Below are positions 14,186-39,556 of a stretch of DNA of 45,561 bases, piece after piece. Origin of the DNA: a virus (taxonomy: Duplodnaviria > Caudoviricetes). Both the position numbers and the translations under genes were made by a program. The notes under the pieces are model-generated. The model was not told the DNA's origin, searched no databases, and worked only from the letters and a program-made list of their open reading frames with translations. The stretch's first letter is position 1, and each line of letters opens with the position of its first letter. The stretch spans positions 1-45,561 of IMG/VR virus record IMGVR_UViG_3300002101_000015; one strand, 5' to 3'.

Positions 14186-16783
14186 GTGCCCATGGAAAAT
14201 AGATATCCATTTATAATAGATCTAAAAAATAGAACATCAAGTAGCATAAGATATAAACAAGGAGATACAGACAGTTCTATTTTAGAAATTAATTTAGTAG
14301 ATGGCGGATTAGTTAAAGATATTACAGGTGAAACTATAGTCTTTAATTTTGCTAAACCAGATGGAACAACAGTGAATCAAGACATGAGTCTTACTGGTGG
14401 GGTAACTGTTCTTGATGCTTTAAAAGGTAAGTTTCAATGTAAACTTAAAAATCAGACCTTAGCGGCTCCAGGAGTAGTTATTTGTGAAATAGTATTTAGT
14501 AATGCTGGCATAATATCATCTACGTCAAAGTTTAATTTTACGGTGGAGAGTAGCATTGGGGGTGGACCATTAAGCAAAAATTACATTACTCAAATAGAAA
14601 CTACAATAGCAGGATGGCAGAATGAAATAGATATAATTAAAGCAGCGTATGATAGTGCAAGTAAAGCAAATCTGTCTATAGAAGTAACTAATGCAAGGAA
14701 CGGATTTGCAAATTTAGATGCAAGATTAGATAACTCTGATTCGCAATTGGCTAATATTACGACACAAAAGGCAGATAAAGCTTATACGGATAGTCAGGAT
14801 TTACTAAATGCTAATAAAATAGCAATTAATCAATCACGTATTGATAATTTAGTAGCTACAGCTTCTAACTCTTTTTATCAAAAATGTTTAAGTACGGATA
14901 CAGGAGCATTATTAGTAGTTGCAAGTGGGGCAACAACAGGACAAATAAACCTCGCAAGTGTAACACCATTAGCAATAGGATATACAGCTATAAATGGTGA
15001 TTATGTAAGATTAGTCTATGGTGTTTCAAGTGGTACTGTAGAACTAACAGATATGAGAATAGATAACTCGGGAAACCTACATGTTACTGCCAACGATAGA
15101 ATAAGCGGAATTGAACAAGATTTAAACACAGGGTATCATATCACAAAACCTAAATGGGCGATAGGTTATATTGGTGGTGCAGATGGGGTATATGTAGCTT
15201 TAACTTCAAACTCCAATATAGCTACGCCTAATATCTTGAGTGTAAAAAAGGGAACACAAATAAAAAACAATCATACAGGTAGTTTAATTATTTATAAATT
15301 CGATATTACCACAGGTGCTTTTATAAGTTCTCTAATCTCCGTATCTGGGGGTGCGTCCTATACTTTCTTAGCTGATACTAATATAAAAATCAATTTAAGC
15401 TATGGTGTTTCTACTACAGATTTTACTTTAGGAAACTCTCTTGTTGTAATAACAGAAGTTAGTAAATATGCAAAACTTAATCAAGTAGACACAAACTTAA
15501 ATACTTTAAATGTTTTAAATAAAAATGTTCTTGATATACAAGGTGCAATTAGTGAAGTACCAAATTATATTGTTAATGCTATTTGGGAATTCGGATATGT
15601 TGATGGTGGAGATGGTTCACTAAAAACTAATTCGTTCACAGCAAGACTTCTTAATATACTATTTATGCCAATAGGTTCAACTTTAGAAGTCACTAATAGT
15701 AACGTAACAATAGCAGTCTCGAAATATATAAATGGGTTATGGAACTCAACAAATATTTTCATAACATTAGCGAGTGGTAAATATACGTTTCTATCGGATA
15801 TGTATATTAAAATCAACTATGGATACGCAGGAAACCCTGCTATCACAGATTTAACACTGCCAAATAGTTATGTAATTATTAAAAAAGGTACTATTAAGGC
15901 ATATATAGACAAAGTAACATCAAATTTAACAGTTGATAGTTATTGGAAGGGCAAAAAAATTTTATGGGTTGGAACATCAATACCTACAAGTGGCTATCCA
16001 GAAATTGTTGGAACGGAATTAGGCGCAACAGTTTATAATGAAGCAGTAGGCAGTAGTGGTGTTAGAGCAGGACATTATAATTTTGTGACAGGCACAGACA
16101 CCATGGGATATTCTGGATTATATTATGAAAGTTTAATGAGGTCTTTGTCTTTATCCTCTACGGAAAAGCAAGCAATTTTTGACAATTGGAGTACATGGCA
16201 ACCCTTAATACCTACTGCCCCTTTAACGATTTCCGATACAGATAAAGCATTTTATAAGACCTGTTCATGGGACATTAAACTTGCCAAATACCTTACAGGT
16301 GGGAGCATAGGTAAGGTTGACTTATATGTATTTGACCATGGACACAATGATGCAGGCTTAGGATATAATTATGATACATTGAATACCATGCCACCAACAG
16401 ATACTAAAGATAGACGATATTTTATAGGTGCTATGAATTTTCTTATAGATAAAATCTTAACTGACAATCCAAGAGCGAGAATATGCTTTATTGGACACTA
16501 TGAGAATGACAGAAAAACAGGAATTTCAGTTGCACAAAGTGTACTTGCAGAATATTGGGATTACCCCTTAATTAAGTCTTGGGAAAAGTTAGGGTGGACA
16601 CAAAAAACAATTACTACTACAGGCTATTGGCAAGATTCTGCAACATGGATTCCAAGTGGAGGTACAAGTCACCAAATGACAATGACACAAGTATGGCTTG
16701 CAGACGATTTACACCCATTCAATGTAGGGGCAAAACAAATGTTAGCTGATTTATATACTAATTTTATCAATAATGTTAGGTAG
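14186..16783 (+). CDS. Receptor-binding / tail fibre protein: BppU-like N-terminus, C-terminal SGNH esterase
   Basis: N-terminal KQGDTDS..KPDG; C-terminal SGNH blocks WVGTSI, DHGHND, DDLHP. Confidence 0.82.
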   Translation: MPMENRYPFIIDLKNRTSSSIRYKQGDTDSSILEINLVDGGLVKDITGETIVFNFAKPDGTTVNQDMSLTGGVTVLDALKGKFQCKLKNQTLAAPGVVICEIVFSNAGIISSTSKFNFTVESSIGGGPLSKNYITQIETTIAGWQNEIDIIKAAYDSASKANLSIEVTNARNGFANLDARLDNSDSQLANITTQKADKAYTDSQDLLNANKIAINQSRIDNLVATASNSFYQKCLSTDTGALLVVASGATTGQINLASVTPLAIGYTAINGDYVRLVYGVSSGTVELTDMRIDNSGNLHVTANDRISGIEQDLNTGYHITKPKWAIGYIGGADGVYVALTSNSNIATPNILSVKKGTQIKNNHTGSLIIYKFDITTGAFISSLISVSGGASYTFLADTNIKINLSYGVSTTDFTLGNSLVVITEVSKYAKLNQVDTNLNTLNVLNKNVLDIQGAISEVPNYIVNAIWEFGYVDGGDGSLKTNSFTARLLNILFMPIGSTLEVTNSNVTIAVSKYINGLWNSTNIFITLASGKYTFLSDMYIKINYGYAGNPAITDLTLPNSYVIIKKGTIKAYIDKVTSNLTVDSYWKGKKILWVGTSIPTSGYPEIVGTELGATVYNEAVGSSGVRAGHYNFVTGTDTMGYSGLYYESLMRSLSLSSTEKQAIFDNWSTWQPLIPTAPLTISDTDKAFYKTCSWDIKLAKYLTGGSIGKVDLYVFDHGHNDAGLGYNYDTLNTMPPTDTKDRRYFIGAMNFLIDKILTDNPRARICFIGHYENDRKTGISVAQSVLAEYWDYPLIKSWEKLGWTQKTITTTGYWQDSATWIPSGGTSHQMTMTQVWLADDLHPFNVGAKQMLADLYTNFINNVR
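14741..14762. repeat. Quasi-palindromic site A (TCGCAAT-TGGCTAAT-ATTACGA)
   Basis: In-frame within the RBP gene (SQLANIT); same CG-N16-CG geometry as sites B, C and E. Confidence 0.65.
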
Positions 16784-16788
16784 TTATG

Positions 16789-16810
16789 TCGCAATAGGAT
16801 ACTAATACGC
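16789..16810. repeat. Quasi-palindromic site B (TCGCAAT-AGGATACT-AATACGC)
   Basis: 5 bp after the RBP stop codon. Confidence 0.62.
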
Positions 16811-16835: not shown

Positions 16836-16864
16836 TTGACATTAGTAATTCAAAGTGTTAAATT
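16836..16864 (+). promoter_or_regulatory. SigA-type promoter
   Basis: TTGACA-17 bp-TAAATT with TG extension. Confidence 0.65.
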
Positions 16865-16897
16865 AGTTGTATAATCATTTGTAAGAGGTGGTTATAT

Positions 16898-17064
16898 ATG
16901 GCAGTCAGAAGACAAAATATTACGGTTGATCCAGAAGTCTTTGAAGAGTTTTGCAAATATGCGGGTCCCAAAGGTATAAAAATTTCTACCTGGATTCTGC
17001 AAAAATGCGTAAATTTGTGGAAGATGAAAAGATGCTTGAAGAAATAAAGAAAAATAAAAGGTGA
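16898..17064 (+). pseudogene. Ribbon-helix-helix-like small regulator, apparently frameshifted
   Basis: MAVRRQNITVDPEVFEEFCKYAGPKGIKISTWI...; GAGGTG RBS; read frame stops at 17047, and adding one base near 16996 gives ..SAKMRKFVEDEKMLEEIKKNKR to TGA 17064. Confidence 0.6.
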
Positions 17065-17088
17065 GGCACTCGCAAGGGTGTCTTTTTT
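17065..17088 (+). terminator. Intrinsic terminator
   Basis: GGCACTC-gcaa-GGGTGTC-TTTTTT. Confidence 0.8.
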
Positions 17089-19840: not shown

Positions 19841-20698
19841 ATGATTTTGGGAGTAGATTTAGGCAATGATAGTGTAAAAACCTCAAAGGGTATCAGTTTT
19901 CTATCTAAAGTATCAAAAGTGGGTAATATTTTAAATAATAATATAACCTTATCAACTTCAAACGATATCTTTTTCATAGAGGAAGGAAAGTTTGATACTG
20001 AATATAGGAAGATAAAAAAGGAATACATTAGAGAAATGTTTCTTGTTGCTGTGGCTTTAAGTTCAGGCGAAATAAATAATCAAATAGTAGTTGGGCTGCC
20101 ACTTAGCCAATACAAAGCAGATAAAGAAACATTTAAAAATCTATTATTAAAAGATAGGATGCAACGGATCAGTGTAAATGGTAATGATAGGAAGATAATA
20201 ATTGAAGATTTGGAGATTTATCCTGAAGGTATTGGAGCATTAGTTGGTCAAGAGTTTGATGGAATAATCGTAGATATTGGTGGAAGAACAACAGATATAG
20301 CCTTATTGGAAAATGGAAAAGTAAAGAAGCCTTATTCTTTACCCACAGGGACTTTAAATTTGTATTCAGAGTTCATAAAAACAATTAATAGTAAATACTC
20401 TTTAGATCTAAAATCAGAAGATGCAAATAGGATTATAAAAAATGGTTTAAAAATCTATGGTGAGCAGAAAGATATTAATTTTGGGTTAGATATATTTAAA
20501 GCCTACGTAGAGGGCATAGTGAGTGAATTACAAGTAAGTTATAGTATTAAGACATTAGACATCATGCTTATTGGTGGAGGCGCTACATTGCTATATAAAG
20601 CATTTAAAAACAGGATTCCTAATGTTCAATTAATAAATGATGCAATATTTGCAAATGCCAATGGATTTAAAAAGGTGGGTGAGAATTTATGGCTTTAA
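19841..20698 (+). CDS. ParM/StbA-family actin-like ATPase
   Basis: GVDLGN, VGLP, YPEG, VDIGGRTTD, IGGGA and ANANGF actin-fold motifs. Confidence 0.92.
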   Translation: MILGVDLGNDSVKTSKGISFLSKVSKVGNILNNNITLSTSNDIFFIEEGKFDTEYRKIKKEYIREMFLVAVALSSGEINNQIVVGLPLSQYKADKETFKNLLLKDRMQRISVNGNDRKIIIEDLEIYPEGIGALVGQEFDGIIVDIGGRTTDIALLENGKVKKPYSLPTGTLNLYSEFIKTINSKYSLDLKSEDANRIIKNGLKIYGEQKDINFGLDIFKAYVEGIVSELQVSYSIKTLDIMLIGGGATLLYKAFKNRIPNVQLINDAIFANANGFKKVGENLWL

Positions 20699-20865
20699 AA
20701 GTTAGCTTAAGCTTTAAAGAGAGTGAAAAGGAAATGTATGATTTCTTGCAATCTCAATTAAGTGCAAGTATTTATATTAAAGAATTGATAAAGAAGGAAA
20801 TGAAAATTAAAGAGGATAAACCGACAAATAAGAAAAATAATAATGACTTTAATTTAGATTTTTAG
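20689..20865 (+). CDS. ParR-like small RHH adaptor (58 aa, not in ORF track)
   Basis: MALKVSLSFKESEKEMYDFLQSQLSASIYIKELIKKEM...DFNLDF; overlaps the parM stop. Confidence 0.75.
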   Translation: MALKVSLSFKESEKEMYDFLQSQLSASIYIKELIKKEMKIKEDKPTNKKNNNDFNLDF

Positions 20866-20869
20866 CAAT

Positions 20870-20897
20870 AAAAAACCACTTCCTCGGGGGAAATGGT
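20870..20897 (-). terminator. Minus-strand intrinsic terminator
   Basis: On - strand ACCATTTCC-cccga-GGAAGTGGT-TTTTT. Confidence 0.75.
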
Positions 20898-21014
20898 AAA
20901 TTTCTACTGCTCGCTCACTACGTCACGCTATACAGTAGAGTATGATTTCAAGTAACAAAAGATGCTATATTTTATATAAATATTTTAATTTAATATTTCA
21001 TTCATATTTTAAAA

Positions 21015-21077
21015 TTACTGAATTATTTCAGCAAATATATAAAGAGCTGCAATAACTAAACTTAATCCAAACAACAT
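21015..21077 (-). CDS. 20-aa hydrophobic micropeptide MLFGLSLVIAALYIFAEIIQ
   Basis: GAGGTGA RBS; upstream TTGAAT-18 bp-TATAAT (21126-21097) on - strand. Confidence 0.6.
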   Translation of the reverse strand: MLFGLSLVIAALYIFAEIIQ

Positions 21078-21138
21078 ATTTATCACCTCACAATGCATTA
21101 TAACCAACTTTATTTAATTTATTCAAGGAGGAAAAATT

Positions 21139-21552
21139 ATGTTAAATTATTTTTGTAAAACAACAACTATGAGTATTGATGATTTTTTAAAATCAGAAAA
21201 AGAGAAATCTACCTTACCAGAAGTAAGAAAAACTCATGATTTTATAAATGGGATTATGAGCAATGATAGATACAAAAAATTTATAGTAGTATTTTTAGGA
21301 ATTACTCTATATTGTAGTAAAGTCTTAGCGGCAACAAACAAAGGGATTGATCCTTTAGGTAATACATTGTTGAATTTAATAAGACATTGGGCTTACTGGG
21401 TAATATTAGTTATGTGCATTTTGGAAGTTATTAGAGCTGGGATAAGCGGAGACTCTAAAAAAATATTAAGTATAATAATGAAATATGTCGTTGTATTTGC
21501 AAGTATGTATCTTGTCCCAGCAATATTTGATGCGATTAGAGATTCATTTTAA
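21139..21552 (+). CDS. TrbC/VirB2 pilin-like membrane protein
   Basis: Signal-like segment ending VLA, then two hydrophobic helices joined by GDSKK; family call from architecture only. Confidence 0.55.
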   Translation: MLNYFCKTTTMSIDDFLKSEKEKSTLPEVRKTHDFINGIMSNDRYKKFIVVFLGITLYCSKVLAATNKGIDPLGNTLLNLIRHWAYWVILVMCILEVIRAGISGDSKKILSIIMKYVVVFASMYLVPAIFDAIRDSF

Positions 21553-21564
21553 GGAGGTTTTATT

Positions 21565-21846
21565 ATGGCAAATGTTAAAGAGATAATAGATGGCTTAAAA
21601 ACTGCAGGTACAACCGGATGGGATTCTATTAAAACTATAGCAGATTTTTTAAATTATTTAATGCATCCCAGCTTAATCTTAAAAGGACTTTGGTATTATA
21701 CTCAGTTATATTCATTTTGGATATGTTTATTTATTGCTTTAATATCACTAATCCTTTATATTCTTGGATTTAAAAAATTTGCTAAGTATGTTCCCGCAAG
21801 TGTAGCAATATATACACTAATAAAAATGATAGCAAGTGCATTCTAA
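21565..21846 (+). CDS. Small membrane protein (VirB3-like position)
   Basis: Two hydrophobic helices; stop overlaps the ATPase start. Confidence 0.6.
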   Translation: MANVKEIIDGLKTAGTTGWDSIKTIADFLNYLMHPSLILKGLWYYTQLYSFWICLFIALISLILYILGFKKFAKYVPASVAIYTLIKMIASAF

Positions 21847-24191
21847 TGTTTAAAAAAAATGGCTCAATGCCTTTAGATAAATATTTTCAACTAATAAAAC
21901 CACAGTACGTATATCTCCAAATTATACCCCACAAATCAACGAGAAATTATAATAGTGCTAACATTGCCAAGGCTATCCAACATACTTATAAGGCTATAAA
22001 CAGTCGCATAAAGATAGAGCAGAGAAAACTATTCATACAAACCAATTTTAAAATTAGCTATGTGATTGATATTAGAAAATCCAATACAAGTTTTTACTTT
22101 ATAGTTCCTAATATATTTCTTAATATAATAATAGAAAAGATTAGAGAAATTTGGAGTCAAGTAGAATTAAATATTGTAGAAAAAATTGAAGGCTTCAGCA
22201 CTAATACTATGTACTATCAACTGAATTATAAAAAAGAAGATGCACTAAGTCTTCAGGTAGATAAAAAAAGCAATGAACCTTTAAATAGCATTTTAGCGGT
22301 TATGGAAATCATGCAAGAAGATGATCGTGTTACTTTAGTCTATAATTTTATACCTAAAAGCCAATTCTACTGGCAGAAAAGCTATAATGCTACAAGAAAA
22401 AAGATTGAAAAAATGAAGATCATAGACAAGGATAGCACTACTATTGAGTATAAATTAAAAGCAGCTTTAAGCTTCCTGAATTATATATTTAATTCCATGT
22501 TATTAACCCTAAATGATTTTGGAGGAAAGCCTAAGGAAGTTAATAATGTTTTGACAGAGCTACTTGTTACATCAAATATTTTAGAAGTTAATAAAAGACT
22601 ATCCAACTCAACTAATTTAAAAAAAGATAAATCCGTACTGGATGCACAGATATTTATTGCTACAAATAGTGTAGATAAGATAAGGCAAGAGAATAATGCG
22701 CAAGTAATAGCTCAATCCTTTCGTATATTAGATGAGGATAATGAGTTAGTATCTAAAAAGGTTAAATTAAAAGCTAATGAAGTATTAAATATAGAGGACT
22801 ACAAATTTAAAAATGTTGGTGAAAATACATTTTCCGTAGATGAGTGCCAGAACTTCATTCAACAACCAGGAAGACAGTTAATGAGAAGTTTAGGAATAAA
22901 GCACACTGAGGTTAATGAAGTACAGGTACCTAAAGAGCTAAGGGAAGGATATATAAGCTTAGGTCCGGTTAAATGTAAAGGTAATATCCAAGATGCTTAT
23001 ATAGAGGATAAATATGATAAGGGAAGTTTACCACTCATACCAGTAGGATCTCAAGGAGCTGGGAAATCTACATTTATGGCTAATTATTATAGATTTTCGA
23101 ATAAAAGAAAAGAAGGAGGAGTGATAATAGACTTTATAAAGAATTGTGAAATGTCTGAGGAAGTTATAAATTACTTGCCTCCTGAAGATATTATTGTATT
23201 GGATTATACAAAGTCTGGGGACATTCAAGGATTTGCCTTCAATGAATATAAGATAAATGATGAAATGGATACATTTGAAAAACTTAACTTGGCTAATCTA
23301 CAAGCTCAGCAAATATTAACTTTCGTAGATTCAATTAATCAAGAGCAACCACTTCAGGCCCGAATGAGAAAGTACTTATCTGCTGCAGCTAACATAGTAT
23401 TTGCAACGGGAGAAAATGCCCTGAAAGAAGTTGTTAAATGTTTAGAATACAATGAAGTAAGAGTATCATATATTGACAAATTATTGGATGAAGAAAAAGA
23501 GTTCTTAGAGGATGAAATTAGATATTTAGAGGAACTTGATGAATATTCTAAACCTACGAAAGATAGTCCAATACCAATAATTATAGGGACCAGATATGAC
23601 AGGATAGAGGGTATTTTAGATAGAATAAGTCTTTTGAGAGAAGATTTTAAACTTAAGTATATGTTCAACAAAGGATCCAAAGGCAATATAGATTTTGCTG
23701 AAGAACTTGAAAAGGGTAAAACAATTATAATACGTATGCCCCAAGATTCCTTTAAGAAACACGCTAAGAATGTCATAGTAACCTTTTTACTCTCTAAGAT
23801 ATGGATAGCTACAGAGATAAGGGGGAAGTGGAACAAACAGCCTAAGCCTACACATATAAGCATTGATGAAATATATCAAACTAAAACTGCTATGAAAATG
23901 TTGGCAAATGATGAGATATTGCCTCAGACACGTAAGTTTGGTTGTAAGTTTATCTTAAGTTGTCAATATACGGACCAGATAGAGATATTAATGGATACCT
24001 TGGTAGGAGCCGGATCATCCTTTATGTTTATGACAGGAACAAGTGAAAAAGACTTTAAACTATTTGAAAGCAAATTGGAGGGATTTGAGTTTGAAGATTT
24101 AAGGGATATGGAGAAATTTCATAGTCTGAATTTAATATATTATTCAGGAGGTTATGCTTCATTTATTAGCAAATTGCCAAAACCATTATAG
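21846..24191 (+). CDS. VirB4/VirD4/HerA-FtsK superfamily P-loop ATPase
   Basis: Walker A GSQGAGKS, IIDF strand, Walker B ISIDE, RKFG and LSCQ motifs; 781 aa. Confidence 0.82.
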   Translation: MFKKNGSMPLDKYFQLIKPQYVYLQIIPHKSTRNYNSANIAKAIQHTYKAINSRIKIEQRKLFIQTNFKISYVIDIRKSNTSFYFIVPNIFLNIIIEKIREIWSQVELNIVEKIEGFSTNTMYYQLNYKKEDALSLQVDKKSNEPLNSILAVMEIMQEDDRVTLVYNFIPKSQFYWQKSYNATRKKIEKMKIIDKDSTTIEYKLKAALSFLNYIFNSMLLTLNDFGGKPKEVNNVLTELLVTSNILEVNKRLSNSTNLKKDKSVLDAQIFIATNSVDKIRQENNAQVIAQSFRILDEDNELVSKKVKLKANEVLNIEDYKFKNVGENTFSVDECQNFIQQPGRQLMRSLGIKHTEVNEVQVPKELREGYISLGPVKCKGNIQDAYIEDKYDKGSLPLIPVGSQGAGKSTFMANYYRFSNKRKEGGVIIDFIKNCEMSEEVINYLPPEDIIVLDYTKSGDIQGFAFNEYKINDEMDTFEKLNLANLQAQQILTFVDSINQEQPLQARMRKYLSAAANIVFATGENALKEVVKCLEYNEVRVSYIDKLLDEEKEFLEDEIRYLEELDEYSKPTKDSPIPIIIGTRYDRIEGILDRISLLREDFKLKYMFNKGSKGNIDFAEELEKGKTIIIRMPQDSFKKHAKNVIVTFLLSKIWIATEIRGKWNKQPKPTHISIDEIYQTKTAMKMLANDEILPQTRKFGCKFILSCQYTDQIEILMDTLVGAGSSFMFMTGTSEKDFKLFESKLEGFEFEDLRDMEKFHSLNLIYYSGGYASFISKLPKPL

Positions 24192-25434: not shown

Positions 25435-26538
25435 TTATTTAAATATATTCTTAACTTGTTGATCCAATTCTTTTGTTTCTTCTAATCCTAAATGCTGATA
25501 TATCTTTTTCAATACCCATATATCATGTCCAAGTCTTCCAGCAGCGTACTGATCAGGTACGTTATTTTTATATAATAAACTTGCATGATAATGCCTCAAG
25601 TCATGGAATCTTATCTTGGGTAAATTATTGCTTTTTAGATTTATTATCTTTCTATATTTTTTACTAAAACTATCCGGATTATAGGAAAATATTTCGGGCT
25701 TTATTTCTGCTTTATTGTTATTTTTAATTTCATCTTTTTTACTTTTCTTTTTAGGTTTTAATTGTCTCATATCCTTTAATAAGGACATTACATAATCAGG
25801 TGCAATAATTGTTCGTATACCATTTGCACTTTTAGGTGACTTTAATTCGAATTGATATCCTTCTTCTTCAAGAGCTACTGCTTCATCTACTCTTATCATA
25901 CAATCTTTTTCATTTATATCGTCCCACTTAAGTGCAAATATTTCACCTCTTCGTAAACCACACCACCCAGCTAACAAAATAATAACTTCATCCTGCAAGC
26001 CAATACTTTTAAAAACCTGATGTATTCTTTCAAATTCCACTTCAGTCGGAATAGTTGGTGTAAATTCACTATTCTGTGGAGCTTTAATTCCCAAACATGG
26101 GGATTTAGTCTTTAATGTATCATAAAACATTTTGGCCAAAGTAAAATAGTGCTTTCTGACAGTAGTTGAAGATAAGCATTTTAGTTTATCAGATAGATAT
26201 TTTTTTATTTGCATATCGGTTATTTGGTTAACTCTAAGGTTTCCAAACGCTGGTGTAAAGTGCAGATCAATATAAGTTTTATATGCCTTGATTGTAGTGT
26301 TTGCAAGAAAGGGTTTATTGATCTCAAACCACTTATCCATATAATCACACATTTTCATTCTGCTTAGGTTATTTAGAGACCTATTTGCAATTTCCTCTTC
26401 AAGATCTCTCACCGCATTTTTACATTCTTTTAATCCATCTCTTGTTACATACTCTCTTAGCATCTTATTATTTGAATCTCTACCTACATATACGACAGCA
26501 CTATAGGTACCATTTGCATTTTTCTTTATACTCGCCAT
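25435..26538 (-). CDS. int: Tyrosine integrase
   Basis: GLRRGE, FHDLRH, RLGH and IY catalytic motifs; N-terminal arm-binding region. Confidence 0.95.
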   Translation of the reverse strand: MASIKKNANGTYSAVVYVGRDSNNKMLREYVTRDGLKECKNAVRDLEEEIANRSLNNLSRMKMCDYMDKWFEINKPFLANTTIKAYKTYIDLHFTPAFGNLRVNQITDMQIKKYLSDKLKCLSSTTVRKHYFTLAKMFYDTLKTKSPCLGIKAPQNSEFTPTIPTEVEFERIHQVFKSIGLQDEVIILLAGWCGLRRGEIFALKWDDINEKDCMIRVDEAVALEEEGYQFELKSPKSANGIRTIIAPDYVMSLLKDMRQLKPKKKSKKDEIKNNNKAEIKPEIFSYNPDSFSKKYRKIINLKSNNLPKIRFHDLRHYHASLLYKNNVPDQYAAGRLGHDIWVLKKIYQHLGLEETKELDQQVKNIFK

Positions 26539-30883: not shown

Positions 30884-31780
30884 ATGGCAGATTTAGCAAT
30901 ACAAAACAAAACAGCAATATCAAATGTTAAAAGTTTACTTGCAAATGTCGGTTATAAAAAAAGGTTTGAGGAAATCTTGGGTAAGAAAGCAGCAGGGTTT
31001 ATGAGCTCAATTGTTAATCTTACAAATTCAGAGACTAAGCTGACAAAATGTGATGCAAATAGTGTTATAGCTTCAGCTGTAGTGGCAGCAACCTTAGATT
31101 TACCTATAGATAAAAATTTAGGATTTGCCTGGATTATACCTTATGGAGATAAAGCACAATTCCAAATGGGATACAAAGGTTTCATTCAATTAGCAATGAG
31201 AACAGGTCAGTATAAAACTATTAATGCAACGGAGGTTTACGAGGGTGATATCAAACACATAAATAGACTCTCAGGTGAAATTGAGTTTGACGAGAACAAT
31301 ACTAAGCAAGATAAAATAGTTGGTTATATAGCTTATTTTAAGCTGCTAAATGGCTTTGAAAAACCTTTATATATGACAGCTGAACAAATGGAAAAGCACG
31401 CTAAGAAGTATAGCCAAACCTATAAAAGCAAATACCAGAATACAGTTGATAGCAGCAAGTGGAGTACAGACTTTGATAGCATGGCGATTAAAACAGTTTT
31501 AAAGCTCCTTTTAAGTAAGTATGGGATCTTAAGTATAGAAATGCAGACAGCTATCCAAGCAGACCAAGGAGTTATCAAAAATGATGTGGCAGAGGGAGCA
31601 GAGATAAATAGCGAAAGTATTGAATATGTAGATAATGCGAATGATGCCGACTTTGAAGAAGTTAGCAAAGAACCAGTATCAACCAAGCTTGATGATAAAT
31701 TCAATAAAAAAGTTGAGGTAAATGGACTATCAGAAGAAGAAAAGGCAGAAATCAAAAGATCAGAAAGTGAGGTTAAATAA
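30884..31780 (+). CDS. recT: RecT-family single-strand annealing protein
   Basis: LGFAWIIPY..AQFQMGYKGFIQLAMRTGQY, MAIKTV. Confidence 0.92.
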   Translation: MADLAIQNKTAISNVKSLLANVGYKKRFEEILGKKAAGFMSSIVNLTNSETKLTKCDANSVIASAVVAATLDLPIDKNLGFAWIIPYGDKAQFQMGYKGFIQLAMRTGQYKTINATEVYEGDIKHINRLSGEIEFDENNTKQDKIVGYIAYFKLLNGFEKPLYMTAEQMEKHAKKYSQTYKSKYQNTVDSSKWSTDFDSMAIKTVLKLLLSKYGILSIEMQTAIQADQGVIKNDVAEGAEINSESIEYVDNANDADFEEVSKEPVSTKLDDKFNKKVEVNGLSEEEKAEIKRSESEVK

Positions 31781-34379: not shown

Positions 34380-34574
34380 ATGCGCTGCTTAGTTTGCAAT
34401 AGAACCTTGAAAGATAAGGAAAGTATAGCAAGGAAGATAGGTCCAACCTGTTTCAGTAGATTAATGAAATTTAATAAAGAAGAAAAGTTGAAAAAGAAAC
34501 ATAGACTTGAGCTGAAAAAGTTAGCAAAAGGAGATATTCCAGGACAATTAAATCTATTTGAGAAATTAATTTAG
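34380..34574 (+). CDS. Zn-finger protein (DUF6011-like)
   Basis: CLVCNRTLKDKESIARKIGPTC. Confidence 0.75.
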   Translation: MRCLVCNRTLKDKESIARKIGPTCFSRLMKFNKEEKLKKKHRLELKKLAKGDIPGQLNLFEKLI

Positions 34575-34598
34575 TTCGCAATTGCTAACTATGGCGAA
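34575..34598. repeat. Quasi-palindromic site C (TTCGCAAT-TGCTAACT-ATGGCGAA)
   Basis: Immediately after a stop codon; 7/8 arm symmetry. Confidence 0.68.
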
Positions 34599-34618: not shown

Positions 34619-35575
34619 GTGGAAGTTAATGAATTGAAGATGCTCCAAGCCTTGCCTTTAGATGTGAAGATAATGAAGTCACAACAAAGGATTCGTGAAT
34701 GGTATGAGTTCTTTGGTAAAAAAGTTTATGTAAGTTTTTCAGGAGGCAAGGACAGCACAGTTTTATTACATTTAGTCAGACAAATGTATCCAGAGGTTGT
34801 TGCTGTATATTCAGACACTGGGTTAGAATTTCCAGAGATAAGAAGTTTTGTGAAAGAAACTGAAAATGTTATTTGGTTAAAACCTAAAATTGGGTTTAAA
34901 CAAGTAATTGAAAAGTATGGTTATCCGGTAATAAGCAAAGAACAAAGCCAGTATATCCAAGAGGTTAGAAATTGTAAATCCAAGCAAGGTGTTAATTATA
35001 ACAACCGATTAAATGGAAATAAGTGGGGTAGAGGTAAAATAACAGATAACTGGAAGTTCATGTTAGAATCACCTTTTAAAATATCTAATATGTGCTGTGA
35101 AATAAGCAAAAAAAAACCCATGAAAGCCTATGAAAAAGAAACAAATAATAACCCCATATTAGGCACTATGGCAGAGGAAAGCCAAATGAGAACAAAAGTT
35201 TATTTACAACAAGGTTGCAATGCCTTTGAGAATAAAAGACCAATTTCACAACCCTTAAGCTTTTGGAAAGAACAGGACATATGGGATTATATAAAACTCC
35301 ATAACTTACCTTATTCTAAAATTTACGACATGGGATATAAACGCACTGGTTGTATGTTTTGTATGTATGGTGTTCACCTGGAAAAAGGAGAAAATAGATT
35401 TCAAAGAATGCAGATAACTCATCCGAAGCAATGGGATTATTGCATGAGGGATGAAGTAAAAGGTGGTTTAGGTATGGCAAAGGTACTTGACTATATAAAT
35501 GTACCTTACATGAATAATATTGAAAATAAAAAGACACCTGAGGGAATTAAATATCAACAATTTAAAATAGTTTAG
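34619..35575 (+). CDS. PAPS reductase-family (PP-loop) protein
   Basis: SFSGGKDS, DTGLEFPE, CC..KK and RTGCMFC motifs. Confidence 0.88.
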   Translation: MEVNELKMLQALPLDVKIMKSQQRIREWYEFFGKKVYVSFSGGKDSTVLLHLVRQMYPEVVAVYSDTGLEFPEIRSFVKETENVIWLKPKIGFKQVIEKYGYPVISKEQSQYIQEVRNCKSKQGVNYNNRLNGNKWGRGKITDNWKFMLESPFKISNMCCEISKKKPMKAYEKETNNNPILGTMAEESQMRTKVYLQQGCNAFENKRPISQPLSFWKEQDIWDYIKLHNLPYSKIYDMGYKRTGCMFCMYGVHLEKGENRFQRMQITHPKQWDYCMRDEVKGGLGMAKVLDYINVPYMNNIENKKTPEGIKYQQFKIV

Positions 35576-35590
35576 TGAGAGGGTGAGGGA

Positions 35591-36490
35591 TTGATTCAGA
35601 TATTAGAACTATTCGGGGGAATAGGAAGCCCAAGGAAGGCTTTGATAAACTTAGGAGTACCTGTAAAGGCTATAGACTATGTTGAGATAGATGAGAAGGC
35701 TATTAGGAGCTATAATGCAATATTCAGCAAGGAGTTAAAGTATAAAAGTCAAACAGTGGTTGGATATAATCTTAAGCCGGATATATTAATACATGGTAGC
35801 CCTTGCCAAGATTTCAGCATAGCAGGCCACCAGAAAGGCGCAGACGAAGGAACGGAAACAAGGTCAAGCCTTATGTGGGAAACCATTAATATTATCAAGC
35901 AGATGGGTGTATGGAAGCCAAGAGTTGTTATTTGGGAAAATGTAAAGAATGTTCTTAGCAAGTATATGCTCCATAACTTTAATAAATATTTAGAAGAAAT
36001 GCAGAGATTAGGGTATATGAACTCCTTTGAGGTATTAGATGCAAGGGAGTTCGGATTACCACAGGCAAGGCAAAGAGTTTTTACTATAAGTTGCATAGAT
36101 GGGATATATTTTAACTTCCAAACACTTGAAAGAAAGCCAATGAGAAATATAAAAGAGTTTTTAGAAGATAATGTTTCAGAGGAATTTACCGTAACGCAAC
36201 CAAGCATTTTAAATGTAATAGGGAGTAAGGGAATTAAAAGAGCAACAGTAATTAAGGACCATTGCTACACAATTACGGAAAGGCAAGATAGATGTCCAGC
36301 TCAAGTAATTGATATTGGAAATAGTAAATACAGGTTTTTAACAGATAGAGAATGTTGGAGATTACAAGGCTACACAGATGAGGATTTCAACGCAGCAGCC
36401 AAAGTAAACACCCGGAGGACTTTATATAAACAGTCAGGTAATTCAATTCCTGTAACAATATTTGAAAGTATATTTAAACAAATTATTTAA
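35591..36490 (+). CDS. DNA cytosine-5 methyltransferase (orphan)
   Basis: ELFGGIG, GSPCQDFS, ENV, QARQRVF and GNS motifs. Confidence 0.93.
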   Translation: MIQILELFGGIGSPRKALINLGVPVKAIDYVEIDEKAIRSYNAIFSKELKYKSQTVVGYNLKPDILIHGSPCQDFSIAGHQKGADEGTETRSSLMWETINIIKQMGVWKPRVVIWENVKNVLSKYMLHNFNKYLEEMQRLGYMNSFEVLDAREFGLPQARQRVFTISCIDGIYFNFQTLERKPMRNIKEFLEDNVSEEFTVTQPSILNVIGSKGIKRATVIKDHCYTITERQDRCPAQVIDIGNSKYRFLTDRECWRLQGYTDEDFNAAAKVNTRRTLYKQSGNSIPVTIFESIFKQII

Positions 36491-36515
36491 TAGAACCTGA
36501 AAGGAGATAGAAATT

Positions 36516-36815
36516 ATGGGCTGTAAATGTGCAAAAGTAACTGATGAATACCATGGATGGGAATGCAGCATAACTGATGGAGAATGTATTTATATGTATC
36601 CGGATAGTAAAAGATGCGCTAAGGAATACGGAGAAGGACCAGATGCTCCACATGATAATTGTGAGGATTGTGAAAACTTCTATTTAGAAAATCATAAAAG
36701 ATGTTGTACAAAAAATCCGTTAGCTTTAATAGATGGCGATATAGTTCCAAGTAAATATATTGATGATGATACTTTATGTTGCGGAGGGTTTAAAGCAAAA
36801 TATGAAAGGAGATAG
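36516..36815 (+). CDS. Cys-rich hypothetical protein
   Basis: AAGGAG RBS; many Cys residues. Confidence 0.65.
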   Translation: MGCKCAKVTDEYHGWECSITDGECIYMYPDSKRCAKEYGEGPDAPHDNCEDCENFYLENHKRCCTKNPLALIDGDIVPSKYIDDDTLCCGGFKAKYERR

Positions 36816-36817
36816 AA

Positions 36818-37360
36818 ATGAGAGAAATTAAATTTAGAGTATGGGAAGGGAAATATGAAATAGGCTCGGATGGAACAGTTTGGAGCTTAGACTATAACCA
36901 TACAAGTAAAAGAAAACAACTGAGAACATATTTGGATAAGGCTGGATACCCTTATGTATTTTTAAATAATTATGGTAAAAGAACAAAGGCAATGGTTCAT
37001 AGAATGGTTGCAGAAAATTTTCTTGAAAAGCCAATTAATAAAAATCAAGTAAACCATAAAAATGGCGTAAGAAACGATAATCAATTAGAAAATTTAGAGT
37101 GGGTAACGCCACAAGAAAATGCTATTCATGGGTGGAGGTGCAACGGTAGAAAGGTTTCGGATAAGCAACGATTAACTATGTCAAAAAATTCAAAAGGCGA
37201 GTTAAATCCTAAAGCTAAAATGACTTATAAAAAGGCGATAGAGTTAAGAGGATTACGTGAAAATGGGGCAAGTCTTAAAGAGTTGTCGAAAATATTTGAT
37301 ATTAGCGTTTCTCAGGTTTGCGCAATAGCACAAGGGAGGTTTTGGAATGAAAAAGTTTAG
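36818..37360 (+). CDS. HNH homing endonuclease
   Basis: VHRMVAENF..VNHKNGVRNDNQLENLEWVTPQEN; C-terminal HTH. Confidence 0.9.
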   Translation: MREIKFRVWEGKYEIGSDGTVWSLDYNHTSKRKQLRTYLDKAGYPYVFLNNYGKRTKAMVHRMVAENFLEKPINKNQVNHKNGVRNDNQLENLEWVTPQENAIHGWRCNGRKVSDKQRLTMSKNSKGELNPKAKMTYKKAIELRGLRENGASLKELSKIFDISVSQVCAIAQGRFWNEKV

Positions 37361-37727
37361 GGTGTGGTGTAAGAATAATAAGCAATGGGAAAAAGACGAA
37401 TGTTTTTTATCACAGGATGGGAAATTATATCAACTCAATAAATATCTACAGACTTGTAGCCTCGAAAATCATATTGTAACTTTCGAAACTGGTTTAAAAG
37501 ATAAGAATGGTGTGGAAATTTATGAGGGAGACATTGTTATAAGTAATAATGGTGCAGTGCAAGGAGTCGTAGTATATCAAGCTCCAACCTTTGTAATTAA
37601 AAAGAATGTTAAAAGTAAGTCCTGGACTGAATTTATATTATCAGCAAAAGAAAATCAGTATCAAAAGGTAATAGGAAATATCTATGAAAATCCAGAACTC
37701 TTGAAAGGAGATAAATTTGAAAGCTGA
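37347..37727 (+). CDS. YopX-family protein
   Basis: KFRVW, TGLKDKNGVEIYEGDIV, VIGNIYENPELL. Confidence 0.9.
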   Translation: MKKFRVWCKNNKQWEKDECFLSQDGKLYQLNKYLQTCSLENHIVTFETGLKDKNGVEIYEGDIVISNNGAVQGVVVYQAPTFVIKKNVKSKSWTEFILSAKENQYQKVIGNIYENPELLKGDKFES

Positions 37728-37998
37728 AAATAGCAAATTTGATTTTGGTAATTTTGGTGATGAAGGTTACCATCATTATGCAGTAAATGCAGGTAAGCAT
37801 ACTAAAGAAGAAGCTATTAAAATCTACGAAAAAGAAAGATACAACGAAGCGCCTTATATAGTTGAACAATCTCATGTTAAGTGGAGAGCAGGAGTAAATG
37901 AAGATGGTAAACCATGTGTAGGATGGTGGTTTGATTATTATCCAACAGAAAAACGAAGCGTTTTGGTATGGGCTTTTAGATATAAATCTAATAAATAG
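37717..37998 (+). CDS. Hypothetical protein
   Basis: AAGGAG RBS with TTG start. Confidence 0.65.
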   Translation: MKAENSKFDFGNFGDEGYHHYAVNAGKHTKEEAIKIYEKERYNEAPYIVEQSHVKWRAGVNEDGKPCVGWWFDYYPTEKRSVLVWAFRYKSNK

Positions 37999-38003
37999 TT
38001 AAT

Positions 38004-38025
38004 GCGGAATCTGATTAAAAGGTGA
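38004..38025. repeat. Degenerate site D (GCGGAAT-CTGATTAA-AAGGTGA)
   Basis: 5 bp after a stop codon; same geometry with TG replacing the right CG. Confidence 0.4.
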
Positions 38026-38050: not shown

Positions 38051-38410
38051 ATGTCATTAAAATTAAAAAAGGGTATTAATCCACAAAAGTTAATGAATTA
38101 TGGGTTTAAAACAGGAAAGGAATGGGCTAAACAAGGTGAAAGGTGTTTAGAGGGCGAAGGCTATAGCTATCAACATGAATGGTATCATAAATTTTTAATG
38201 GATGAAGAAAATCCTAACAAAATCCTATATGCAGATGAAGAATATGACCAACCCCTCGTTCATATTTCAATGAGAACTGGTGGGAATTTTCCTAATGACT
38301 TATATATAGATTGTACTCCTTCTGGAACTTACCATATTGGAGGTTCGGAATTAGACGTTATAACAGAAACAATATTTGACTTAGTAAATGATGGTCTTTT
38401 AGAAAAATAG
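38051..38410 (+). CDS. Hypothetical protein (between sites D and E)
   Basis: AAGGGTG RBS. Confidence 0.7.
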   Translation: MSLKLKKGINPQKLMNYGFKTGKEWAKQGERCLEGEGYSYQHEWYHKFLMDEENPNKILYADEEYDQPLVHISMRTGGNFPNDLYIDCTPSGTYHIGGSELDVITETIFDLVNDGLLEK

Positions 38411-38417
38411 ATTAGTT

Positions 38418-38439
38418 ACGCATTTCAAATATATGGCGC
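38418..38439. repeat. Quasi-palindromic site E (ACGCATT-TCAAATAT-ATGGCGC)
   Basis: Just after a stop codon and ~120 bp upstream of the second recombinase. Confidence 0.62.
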
Positions 38440-38560: not shown

Positions 38561-39556
38561 ATGAATACAGATAATGCAAAAGATGAAGTGATAATTAAAC
38601 TGGTTGGAAAGTTAACATTAGAGTTTCCAGATATAGATCAGTTAAAAGTCAGAAGAATTGCCGAGGAAGTAATGTACAAATATACAATAAATTCAACAGA
38701 GACATCCCTCGTTGTTACAGACATAGATCAAAGGATAGAGATATATCTTGCTTGTAAAAGACTTGATGGATTAAGCTCTAAGACACTAAAGGGATATGAA
38801 CAAAATTTATTTATATTTGCAAGTTATATTAAAAAACCCATAGCAACGGTAAATACAATGGATCTGAGAATGTTTCTGGCAGTAAGGTGCAAAAATCTTA
38901 AACCAAGCAGTACAAATACTCAAATGTCAATTCTAAAATCATTCTTTGGGTGGCTTTATGAAGAGGAATATATACCGACTAATCCAAGTAAAAAATTAAA
39001 ACAAACTAAAGAACCAAAGAGATTGCGATATGCACTAACTGATGAAGAAATAGAAAATTTAAGGCAAGTTTGCAGTACAGATAAAGAAAAATCATTATTA
39101 GAGTTTTTAGTAAGTACCGGATGCAGGCTAAGTGAAGCAACTCAAATAGATATAGATTCAATAAATTGGTTTGAATTAAGCCTAAATGTAATTGGAAAAG
39201 GCAACAAAGAAAGAAAAGTATTCTTTACTATCAAAGCTAAGATCTTATTAAAAAAGTATTTGAAAAATAGAAAAGGGAAGAGCAAAGCTTTATTTATAAG
39301 TGAAAAGGCACCCTACGCAAGACTTGGAAACAGAGGAATTGAATATATAATCCATAGAATAGCGTTAAGAGCTAATTTTGATAAGTCAGTATTCCCTCAT
39401 CTGTTTAGACATAGTTTTGCAACACATAATCTTAATGCTGGGATGCCTTTACCAATATTACAAAAGCTCATGGGACATACAAGTGCTGATACAACGATGA
39501 TTTATGCTGAAATGAGTGAGGAAAATGTTAGGCATGAGTACAAACGAATATCTTAA
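38561..39556 (+). CDS. Second tyrosine recombinase (XerC/D-like)
   Basis: TGCRLSE, GKGNKER, HLFRHS and LMGH..TTMIY motifs; SAM-like N-terminal domain. Confidence 0.93.
   Translation: MNTDNAKDEVIIKLVGKLTLEFPDIDQLKVRRIAEEVMYKYTINSTETSLVVTDIDQRIEIYLACKRLDGLSSKTLKGYEQNLFIFASYIKKPIATVNTMDLRMFLAVRCKNLKPSSTNTQMSILKSFFGWLYEEEYIPTNPSKKLKQTKEPKRLRYALTDEEIENLRQVCSTDKEKSLLEFLVSTGCRLSEATQIDIDSINWFELSLNVIGKGNKERKVFFTIKAKILLKKYLKNRKGKSKALFISEKAPYARLGNRGIEYIIHRIALRANFDKSVFPHLFRHSFATHNLNAGMPLPILQKLMGHTSADTTMIYAEMSEENVRHEYKRIS

Follow-up and report, generated by a model that had tools for sequence, protein, structure and literature searches.

How do temperate phages exchange the receptor-binding tips of their tail fibres? 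Swaps of receptor-binding domains between unrelated tail genes are usually ascribed to illegitimate or homologous recombination. The locus described here poses the question in a form testable with one gene and two short sites, its tip junction being a defined 20-nt site tied to a common, unexplained 'second integrase'. The locus resides in a virus record of 45,561 nucleotides that was analysed as a whole (the window). This 45.6-kb record displays the layout of a temperate siphophage, running from terminase to tail, lysis, integrase and early genes, and its closest named proteins are from Clostridium. An original prediction, drawn from the DNA alone, held that about 2 kb of the receptor-binding protein (RBP) gene is exchanged at flanking sites through the action of a distant recombinase. 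The features concerned are as follows, with sites scored by the weight matrix described below.

14186/14192-16783, + strand: RBP open reading frame; its TAG stop ends at 16783
14186..14740, + strand: constant 5' part of the RBP gene, encoding a BppU_N anchor (PF10651, aa 17-142, E 5e-19) and a likely helical stalk
14741..14762, + strand: site A, TCGCAAT-TGGCTAAT-ATTACGA, core CGCAAT-TGGCTAAT-ATTACG; in frame; score 19.2
14763..16783, + strand: candidate exchangeable tip, comprising a short continuation, a ~90-aa module, central domains and a C-terminal SGNH-like domain
16789..16810, + strand: site B, TCGCAAT-AGGATACT-AATACGC, core CGCAAT-AGGATACT-AATACG; non-coding; score 19.7
16836..17084, + strand: small gene (ATG 16898) with promoter-like site and terminator; the same set follows site B in several phages
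34576..34597, + strand: site C, left border of the early accessory block; score 19.0
38004..38025, + strand: site D, CGGAAT-CTGATTAA-AAGGTG, directly past a stop codon; score 18.6
38418..38439, + strand: site E, CGCATT-TCAAATAT-ATGGCG, 142 nt ahead of the recombinase gene; score 26.1

Five co-oriented sites in the window

Sites A and B were found where predicted, A encoding SQLANIT in frame (RBP aa 184-190, counted from ATG 14192) and B starting 5 nt past the RBP stop. Their proposed match to two distant sites was likewise borne out, with C at 34576 and E at 38418, and a fifth site, D, was added at 38004. Together, A to E form a 20-nt family with the spacing CG-4-8-4-CG, all co-oriented. This spacing is the geometry of loxP and dif cores.

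A literal pattern with 3 mismatches gave 7 matches in the window versus 3.7 expected, a number reached in 12 of 100 shuffles and not significant. Over 200 shuffles, a pattern fitted to the sites gave 4 matches versus 0.015 per shuffle and a symmetric CG..WT-8-AW..CG pattern gave 5 versus 0.29, both being post hoc. Because the literal pattern was not significant and the fitted ones were post hoc, a weight matrix was trained on other phages, using the 6 kb upstream of recombinase relatives at 91 low-GC loci; window DNA was excluded, and the seed pattern was shaped on the window's own sites. The matrix ranked E, B, A, C and D top in the window (26.1 to 18.6; next best 10.6), all on the + strand, with 0.5 matches above score 13 in locally shuffled windows. 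All five were again top with a matrix from 49 loci outside the botulinum/sporogenes group, which at 42 held-out loci gave 0.254 matches per kb upstream versus 0.008 downstream of the recombinase. The reverse split, trained on the botulinum/sporogenes group, was weaker (0.049 versus 0.018 per kb), with D, A and B top and C and E scoring 7.6 and 7.1. Control models were not clean negatives: one trained on downstream DNA had 2 family-like seeds and placed E and D, but neither A nor B, at the top of its ranking, while a reverse-strand model drifted to 337 sites. A repeat finder run on the window did not list A to E among its top families. One record, L250, is a 100% match to the window and was excluded from all counts. 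That A to E are a real site family is confirmed.

Consistent with the original prediction, no invertase adjoins the RBP locus. The recombinase gene lies 22 kb away, and the matrix scan of the window revealed neither an inverted site nor a separate site on the reverse strand.

The constant part of the RBP is common to 9 homologues with unrelated C-termini. Conversely, the ~90-aa module of the tip is present behind many unrelated anchors, and a SQLA-like motif lies just upstream of it in 25 of 44 homologues. The SGNH-like domain constitutes the last third of the protein (aa about 575-863, by Atlas features and structure; Pfam alone gives only E 0.47). Site A had been proposed to lie about where the anchor with its coiled coil gives way to the variable/SGNH part. 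Two corrections apply: BppU_N covers only aa 17-142, and SGNH only the last third, so the cassette contains more than the SGNH domain. An AlphaFold model of the RBP was unusable (pLDDT 34.6), and the coiled-coil boundary is tentative.

Three further observations concern the window. The small gene at 16898-17065 is 1 base short relative to its homologues in four records (L048, L234, L230 and L182); its frame therefore breaks, signifying a pseudogene or an assembly error. From the lysis genes to the integrase (19841-24191) lie a ParM/actin-like gene, two small ORFs and one of 781 aa that bears a Walker-A-like motif; the matching region of phage phiCp-D holds ParM and a coupling-protein-like gene. 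Finally, a 23-nt repeat with one mismatch, possibly due to chance, occurs at 14276-14298, in anchor coding sequence of the RBP gene, and at 34553-34575, just left of site C.

Junctions, breakpoints and spacers in other phages

The in-frame junction is found in many other phages. An exact 20-nt pattern matched 28 loci among all viral contigs, and 28 of 28 read as a SQLADIT-type junction; of the 26 that had sufficient sequence, 19 possess another strong site downstream. The structural regions of 43 recombinase-bearing phage records (954,503 bases), scanned with the matrix trained on early arrays, contained 56 same-strand versus 4 opposite-strand matches, none of the latter forming a tip array. 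All 30 same-strand matches within ORFs were in one frame; 28, in 28 records, were SQLADIT-type fibre junctions and 2 lay elsewhere. Junction anchors belong to unrelated families, most of them tail-fibre or virion proteins by PHROG; three tested anchors without a PHROG match were classed by position. One strong in-frame site (score 18.5) lies inside a 1962-aa tape-measure-like ORF, not a fibre gene (L203). In five records (L192, L205, L222, L224 and L247), more site-bounded units occupy the stretch from the tip cassette to the holin and other lysis genes, making up a second cassette array downstream of the fibre gene.

The anchor family of the window comprised 12 distinct relatives after removal of three duplicates and one window copy. 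Ten have the junction and 2 do not. The first codon of these junctions ends in CG in 9 of 10, scores exceed 11 in only 4, and only 3 of the 12 relatives have a strong site no more than 15 nt from the stop codon.

Synonymous constraint on the site, which the original prediction had put forward as a check, was evident. Selection by protein motif only yielded 31 matches, representing 24 fibre junctions and 7 incidental occurrences. The Leu codon was TTG in 24 of 24 junctions versus 0 of 7 incidental matches (background 10.5%), and again in 10 of 10 junctions of the window's anchor family, while the Thr codon was ACG in 15 of 16 fibre junctions (background 5.1%). The SQLA codons are thus not freely varying.

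Nucleotide identity had also been expected to drop at the SQLA codons, and breakpoints indeed cluster at the site. Among 190 pairs of 20 junctions, which are not independent events, 12 of 12 pairs with different anchors and the same tip switch identity at -6 to +5 of the 20-nt core, and 18 of 22 pairs with the same anchor and different tips switch at +9 to +29 of the core, the other 4 switching before the site, at -11 or -23. Unrelated pairs (139) were 0.82 alike in the core versus about 0.31 in distant flanks; the rest of the set consisted of 16 ambiguous pairs and 1 alike on both sides. Within the window's anchor family, three pairs with 90-100% identical anchors diverge in the site or at its end. 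One whole tip is common to different anchors, from A-1 to B+13, and alignments of relatives have their starts at B+7 and their ends at B+13, on the two sides of site B's spacer. Homology resumes after B as anticipated: window DNA is 69-77% like L048, L234 and L230 from 16777-16792 onward, with unrelated tips upstream. Single-protein searches of viral contigs returned no close DNA relative of anchor or tip, nor did an anchor-alignment search of species genomes return one, and no close relative of the window phage bearing another tip was found. Of alignment ends in the tail region, 45 of 307 fell at assigned A or B sites, which occupy 3.3% of the region, and 262 fell away from them, many at extra sites or in the lysis/moron region and some inside tips. 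The sites therefore do not account for all mosaicism.

Spacers distinguish the two ends of the tip. Comparison of the 8-nt spacers of 33 A and 26 B sites gave an average agreement across phages of 7.5/8 for A with A, a value partly due to protein constraint, 6.4/8 for B with B and 3.0/8 for A with B. Within one genome, A and B spacers were alike at only 2-4 of 8 bases in 26 of 26 cases. The window's own A and B agree at 5 of 8, more than in relatives, and no spacer pair among its five sites is alike at more than 5 bases; its A spacer is 6.8/8 like the A class. Being unlike each other, yet each conserved across phages, A and B spacers favour exchange between genomes over excision or inversion. 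Tyrosine recombinases require matching central regions, according to the accessible part of PMC11705084, and the likely route would accordingly be A of one phage with A of another, resolved at B. Comparative evidence of breakpoints at A and of homology resuming at B makes exchange of the ~2 kb tip cassette among related phages, as originally predicted, a well-supported reading.

The recombinase and early accessory arrays

The early region holds the remaining sites and a recombinase distinct from the integrase.

25435-26538: integrase, separate from the arm-less recombinase
30884..31780, + strand: RecT single-strand annealing protein (PF03837, E 1e-49)
34619..37998, + strand: 3.4-kb C-D unit, with PAPS-reductase-like gene, C5 methylase, 99-aa ORF, HNH, YopX and 93-aa ORF
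38051..38410, + strand: single gene for 119 aa, alone in the 414-nt unit between D and E, without Pfam or PHROG match
38561..39556, + strand: arm-less XerC/D-like tyrosine recombinase, with R189, K213/K216, H280, R283, H306 and Y315 all present

The recombinase consists of a core-binding and a catalytic domain and has no arm-binding domain. Its nearest solved structures are XerD and XerA, and it scores 218.6 against NF040815, just below the cut-off of 220, and far below the XerC/XerD cut-offs. Relatives number 951 proteins at E <= 1e-60. DNA resembling the recombinase leaders of relatives starts at or just past site E. Site calling in 84 distinct upstream regions gave 237, and for 174 of these a stop codon is no more than 15 nt away (random expectation 6.8%). 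Alignment ends in the early region coincided with sites in 263 of 1021 cases (random 4.1%), piled at +11 to +15, and 758 lay away from called sites. The 151 units between sites represent 126 families, and several recurring units have differing neighbours. Site density was 0.6-0.8 per kb in the 5 kb before the recombinase versus at most 0.06 per kb after it, in a comparison whose training covered the upstream 6 kb.

The recombinase family occurs in two layouts, one next to early cassette arrays and the other immediately after the fibre gene. By our reading of the PHROG table, the largest ORF upstream of the recombinase is a tail or virion protein at 26 of 85 loci; an in-frame site was present at 11 of these 26 versus 1 of the 59 others. 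In both of the best cultured-phage matches, TPELB_ph1 and phiCp-D, the recombinase gene immediately follows the last tail gene, past whose stop a site lies; the patterns used found no in-frame site in phiCp-D to accompany its post-stop site. A quick tree without bootstrap placed the window recombinase in a 40-row clade (SH-aLRT 98) that is mostly of the early-array type and includes the tail-adjacent L033. In ten prophages (L033, L048, L049, L052, L053, L055, L056, L073, L078 and L098), the recombinase lies a few kb behind a gene with an in-frame site. Their hosts are Clostridium magnum, C. grantii, Paenibacillus, Bacillus, Moorellaceae and Syntrophomonadaceae; the last four indicate that the system reaches past Clostridium.

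Within one anchor family, counting sites scoring at least 9, an in-frame site was present in 22 of 24 recombinase-positive versus 7 of 21 complete recombinase-negative records, a comparison confounded by host lineage and shared descent. Three of the seven complete records with a site and no recombinase (L264, L333 and L334) have record names that open with the same prefix as that of a recombinase-positive record, suggesting that a co-resident prophage supplies the enzyme. A recombinase search of the records of L001, L003 and L004, which are fragments 29-48% complete, and of phage FA67 gave no match, a result that is uninformative for the fragments.

Mechanism, alternatives and known systems

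The link between tip sites and the distant recombinase that the original prediction had drawn is supported by the two layouts and the shared sites, while catalysis in trans stands as likely. Judging from sequence comparison, the tip is probably a cassette between two co-oriented core sites, whose exchange the arm-less recombinase likely catalyses between the genomes of co-infecting phages. The enzyme would bind the two arms of a site and exchange strands inside the 8-nt spacer. Pairing would be restricted to A with the A of another phage and B with another's B. Two crossovers, together or successively, would then substitute another tip, in frame, along with its chaperone genes, and the mismatch between A and B spacers would prevent a phage from deleting its own tip. 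Accessory genes of the early array would be shuffled by the same recombinase, and phages without it may borrow the enzyme from a co-resident prophage. Contigs of four runs, two of them possibly the source of the window DNA, contained no tip-swap or excision joint at A to E; the sole joint listed there, one side of which measured 21 nt, was discounted. As rare variants are lost from contigs, missing joints are no evidence of absence.

The main rival holds that the sites are conserved boundaries used by RecT-type homologous or micro-homologous recombination, the tyrosine recombinase being a passenger or having another job. The shared sequence spans only about 20 nt between flanks unrelated on both sides, which is difficult to reconcile with this proposal even though the window phage encodes RecT and modules of T4-type phages are shuffled at elements they share in PeSL cassettes (according to the abstract of PMC2839356). 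Many breakpoints do lie off-site, and sites are kept without recombinase in the 7 of 21 complete records; against this, each site consists of dyad arms around an asymmetric spacer, sites cluster in the 5 kb ahead of the recombinase gene, and the enzyme accompanies the site at two different genome positions. We consider RecT-type recombination unlikely to be the explanation, and two other readings are weaker.

It is improbable that the recombinase serves as a Cre/Xer-like multimer resolvase of circular phage DNA that uses identical sites in dimers, with tip and cassette exchange a by-product of crossovers between unlike phages. One site would be enough for that role, yet the window has five, whose spacers differ and one of which is kept in frame, with fixed rare codons, inside an essential-type gene, and early sites lie at gene ends, where they border 126 unit families among 151 units. 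The arm-less Xer-like architecture and the ParM-like gene at 19841 would fit a resolvase, whose chemistry would be the same as in the cassette-exchange explanation and differ only in its selected purpose. Marginally less probable still is that host XerC/D reads the sites, or that they are transcription-factor operators, with the phage recombinase uninvolved: the 5-6-5 spacing between CG pairs is dif-like and host XerC/D moves Acinetobacter pdif modules (per the accessible part of PMC11705084), but dif/XerCD sites were rejected on an XerD-type arm (one mismatch allowed) in just 4 of 191 sites, Spo0A and LexA operators on boxes in 8 and 0 of 191, operators leave spacer crossovers and the fixed reading frame unexplained, and C. 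difficile-type phages with the same anchor (L282-L288) are without the site.

Returning to cassette exchange by the phage recombinase, we lean towards a broader reading, in which temperate phages of Clostridia and Bacilli share a hitherto undescribed phage-encoded system that amounts to recombinase-mediated cassette exchange in nature. A single recombinase family and spacer-coded sites would let many unrelated anchors take any pooled tip in frame, and the system would also build integron-like arrays of early accessory genes. If so, prophages would reassort host range and accessory content through programmed recombination with one another, not through chance homology. The recombinase family would gain a function, the SQLADI-type motif that recurs in these phages' fibre proteins would be explained, and a new recombinase with naturally orthogonal sites would be at hand. 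A full-text literature search that covered few subscription papers found no description of the site family, and the accessible portions of PMC3442830 and PMC12823448 hold nothing on it.

Compared with known systems, this one works most like the pdif modules of Acinetobacter, has the RBP anatomy of the Rin shufflon and the array layout of integrons, and departs from each in a defining trait. As far as the accessible part of PMC11705084 describes them, pdif (xrs) modules of Acinetobacter plasmids have flanking sites with divergent central regions, so that excision does not occur; compatible sites on two replicons form cointegrates, and resolution at a second pair, with gene swap, is proposed. 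Here too, Xer-type core sites flank exchangeable genes, and flanking central regions are divergent yet compatible across replicons. The phage system differs in being a phage element with a likely phage-encoded enzyme rather than host XerC/D, in having no XerD arm, in the co-orientation of all sites, and in placing one site in coding frame, where it makes protein fusions.

With the Rin shufflon of Bifidobacterium prophages, as outlined in the available text of PMC6109161, the window shares an arm-less XerD-like tyrosine recombinase, an RBP whose constant N-terminus is parted from a variable C-terminus by an in-frame site, and another site just past the gene's 3' end in direct orientation. Rin has adjacent silent tips and inverts DNA within one genome at inverted identical 11-bp sites (same source), whereas the window lacks spare tips and inverted sites, has differing spacers at A and B, a tip of 680 aa and its enzyme 22 kb away (adjacent in some relatives), and repeats the same site around early accessory genes. 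A Rin/Min/Gin-type shufflon was rejected, as inverted sites with silent tips beside the gene were lacking.

Integrons, including phage-borne ones (from the accessible parts of PMC9892861 and PMC8138268), likewise have a tyrosine recombinase gene beside co-oriented units, each closed by a post-stop site, and the early arrays reproduce this trait in their site-closed gene units with varying neighbours. The sites here are 20-32 nt double-strand dyads, not attC hairpins, and the recombinase gene is co-oriented at the array end. An integron integrase was rejected (TIGR02249, 93.9 bits versus a cut-off of 265); the PF00589 match aligns 162 residues to 168 positions, leaving no room for the IntI insertion. 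attC sites were rejected as well, the attC core motif occurring in 1 of 191 sites in a comparison by motif. PeSL cassettes resemble the system as a repeated short element where related phages shuffle accessory modules; they are promoter and stem-loop units for which the abstract of PMC2839356 names no dedicated recombinase, whereas the present sites have core-site geometry, in-frame copies and a recombinase family alongside.
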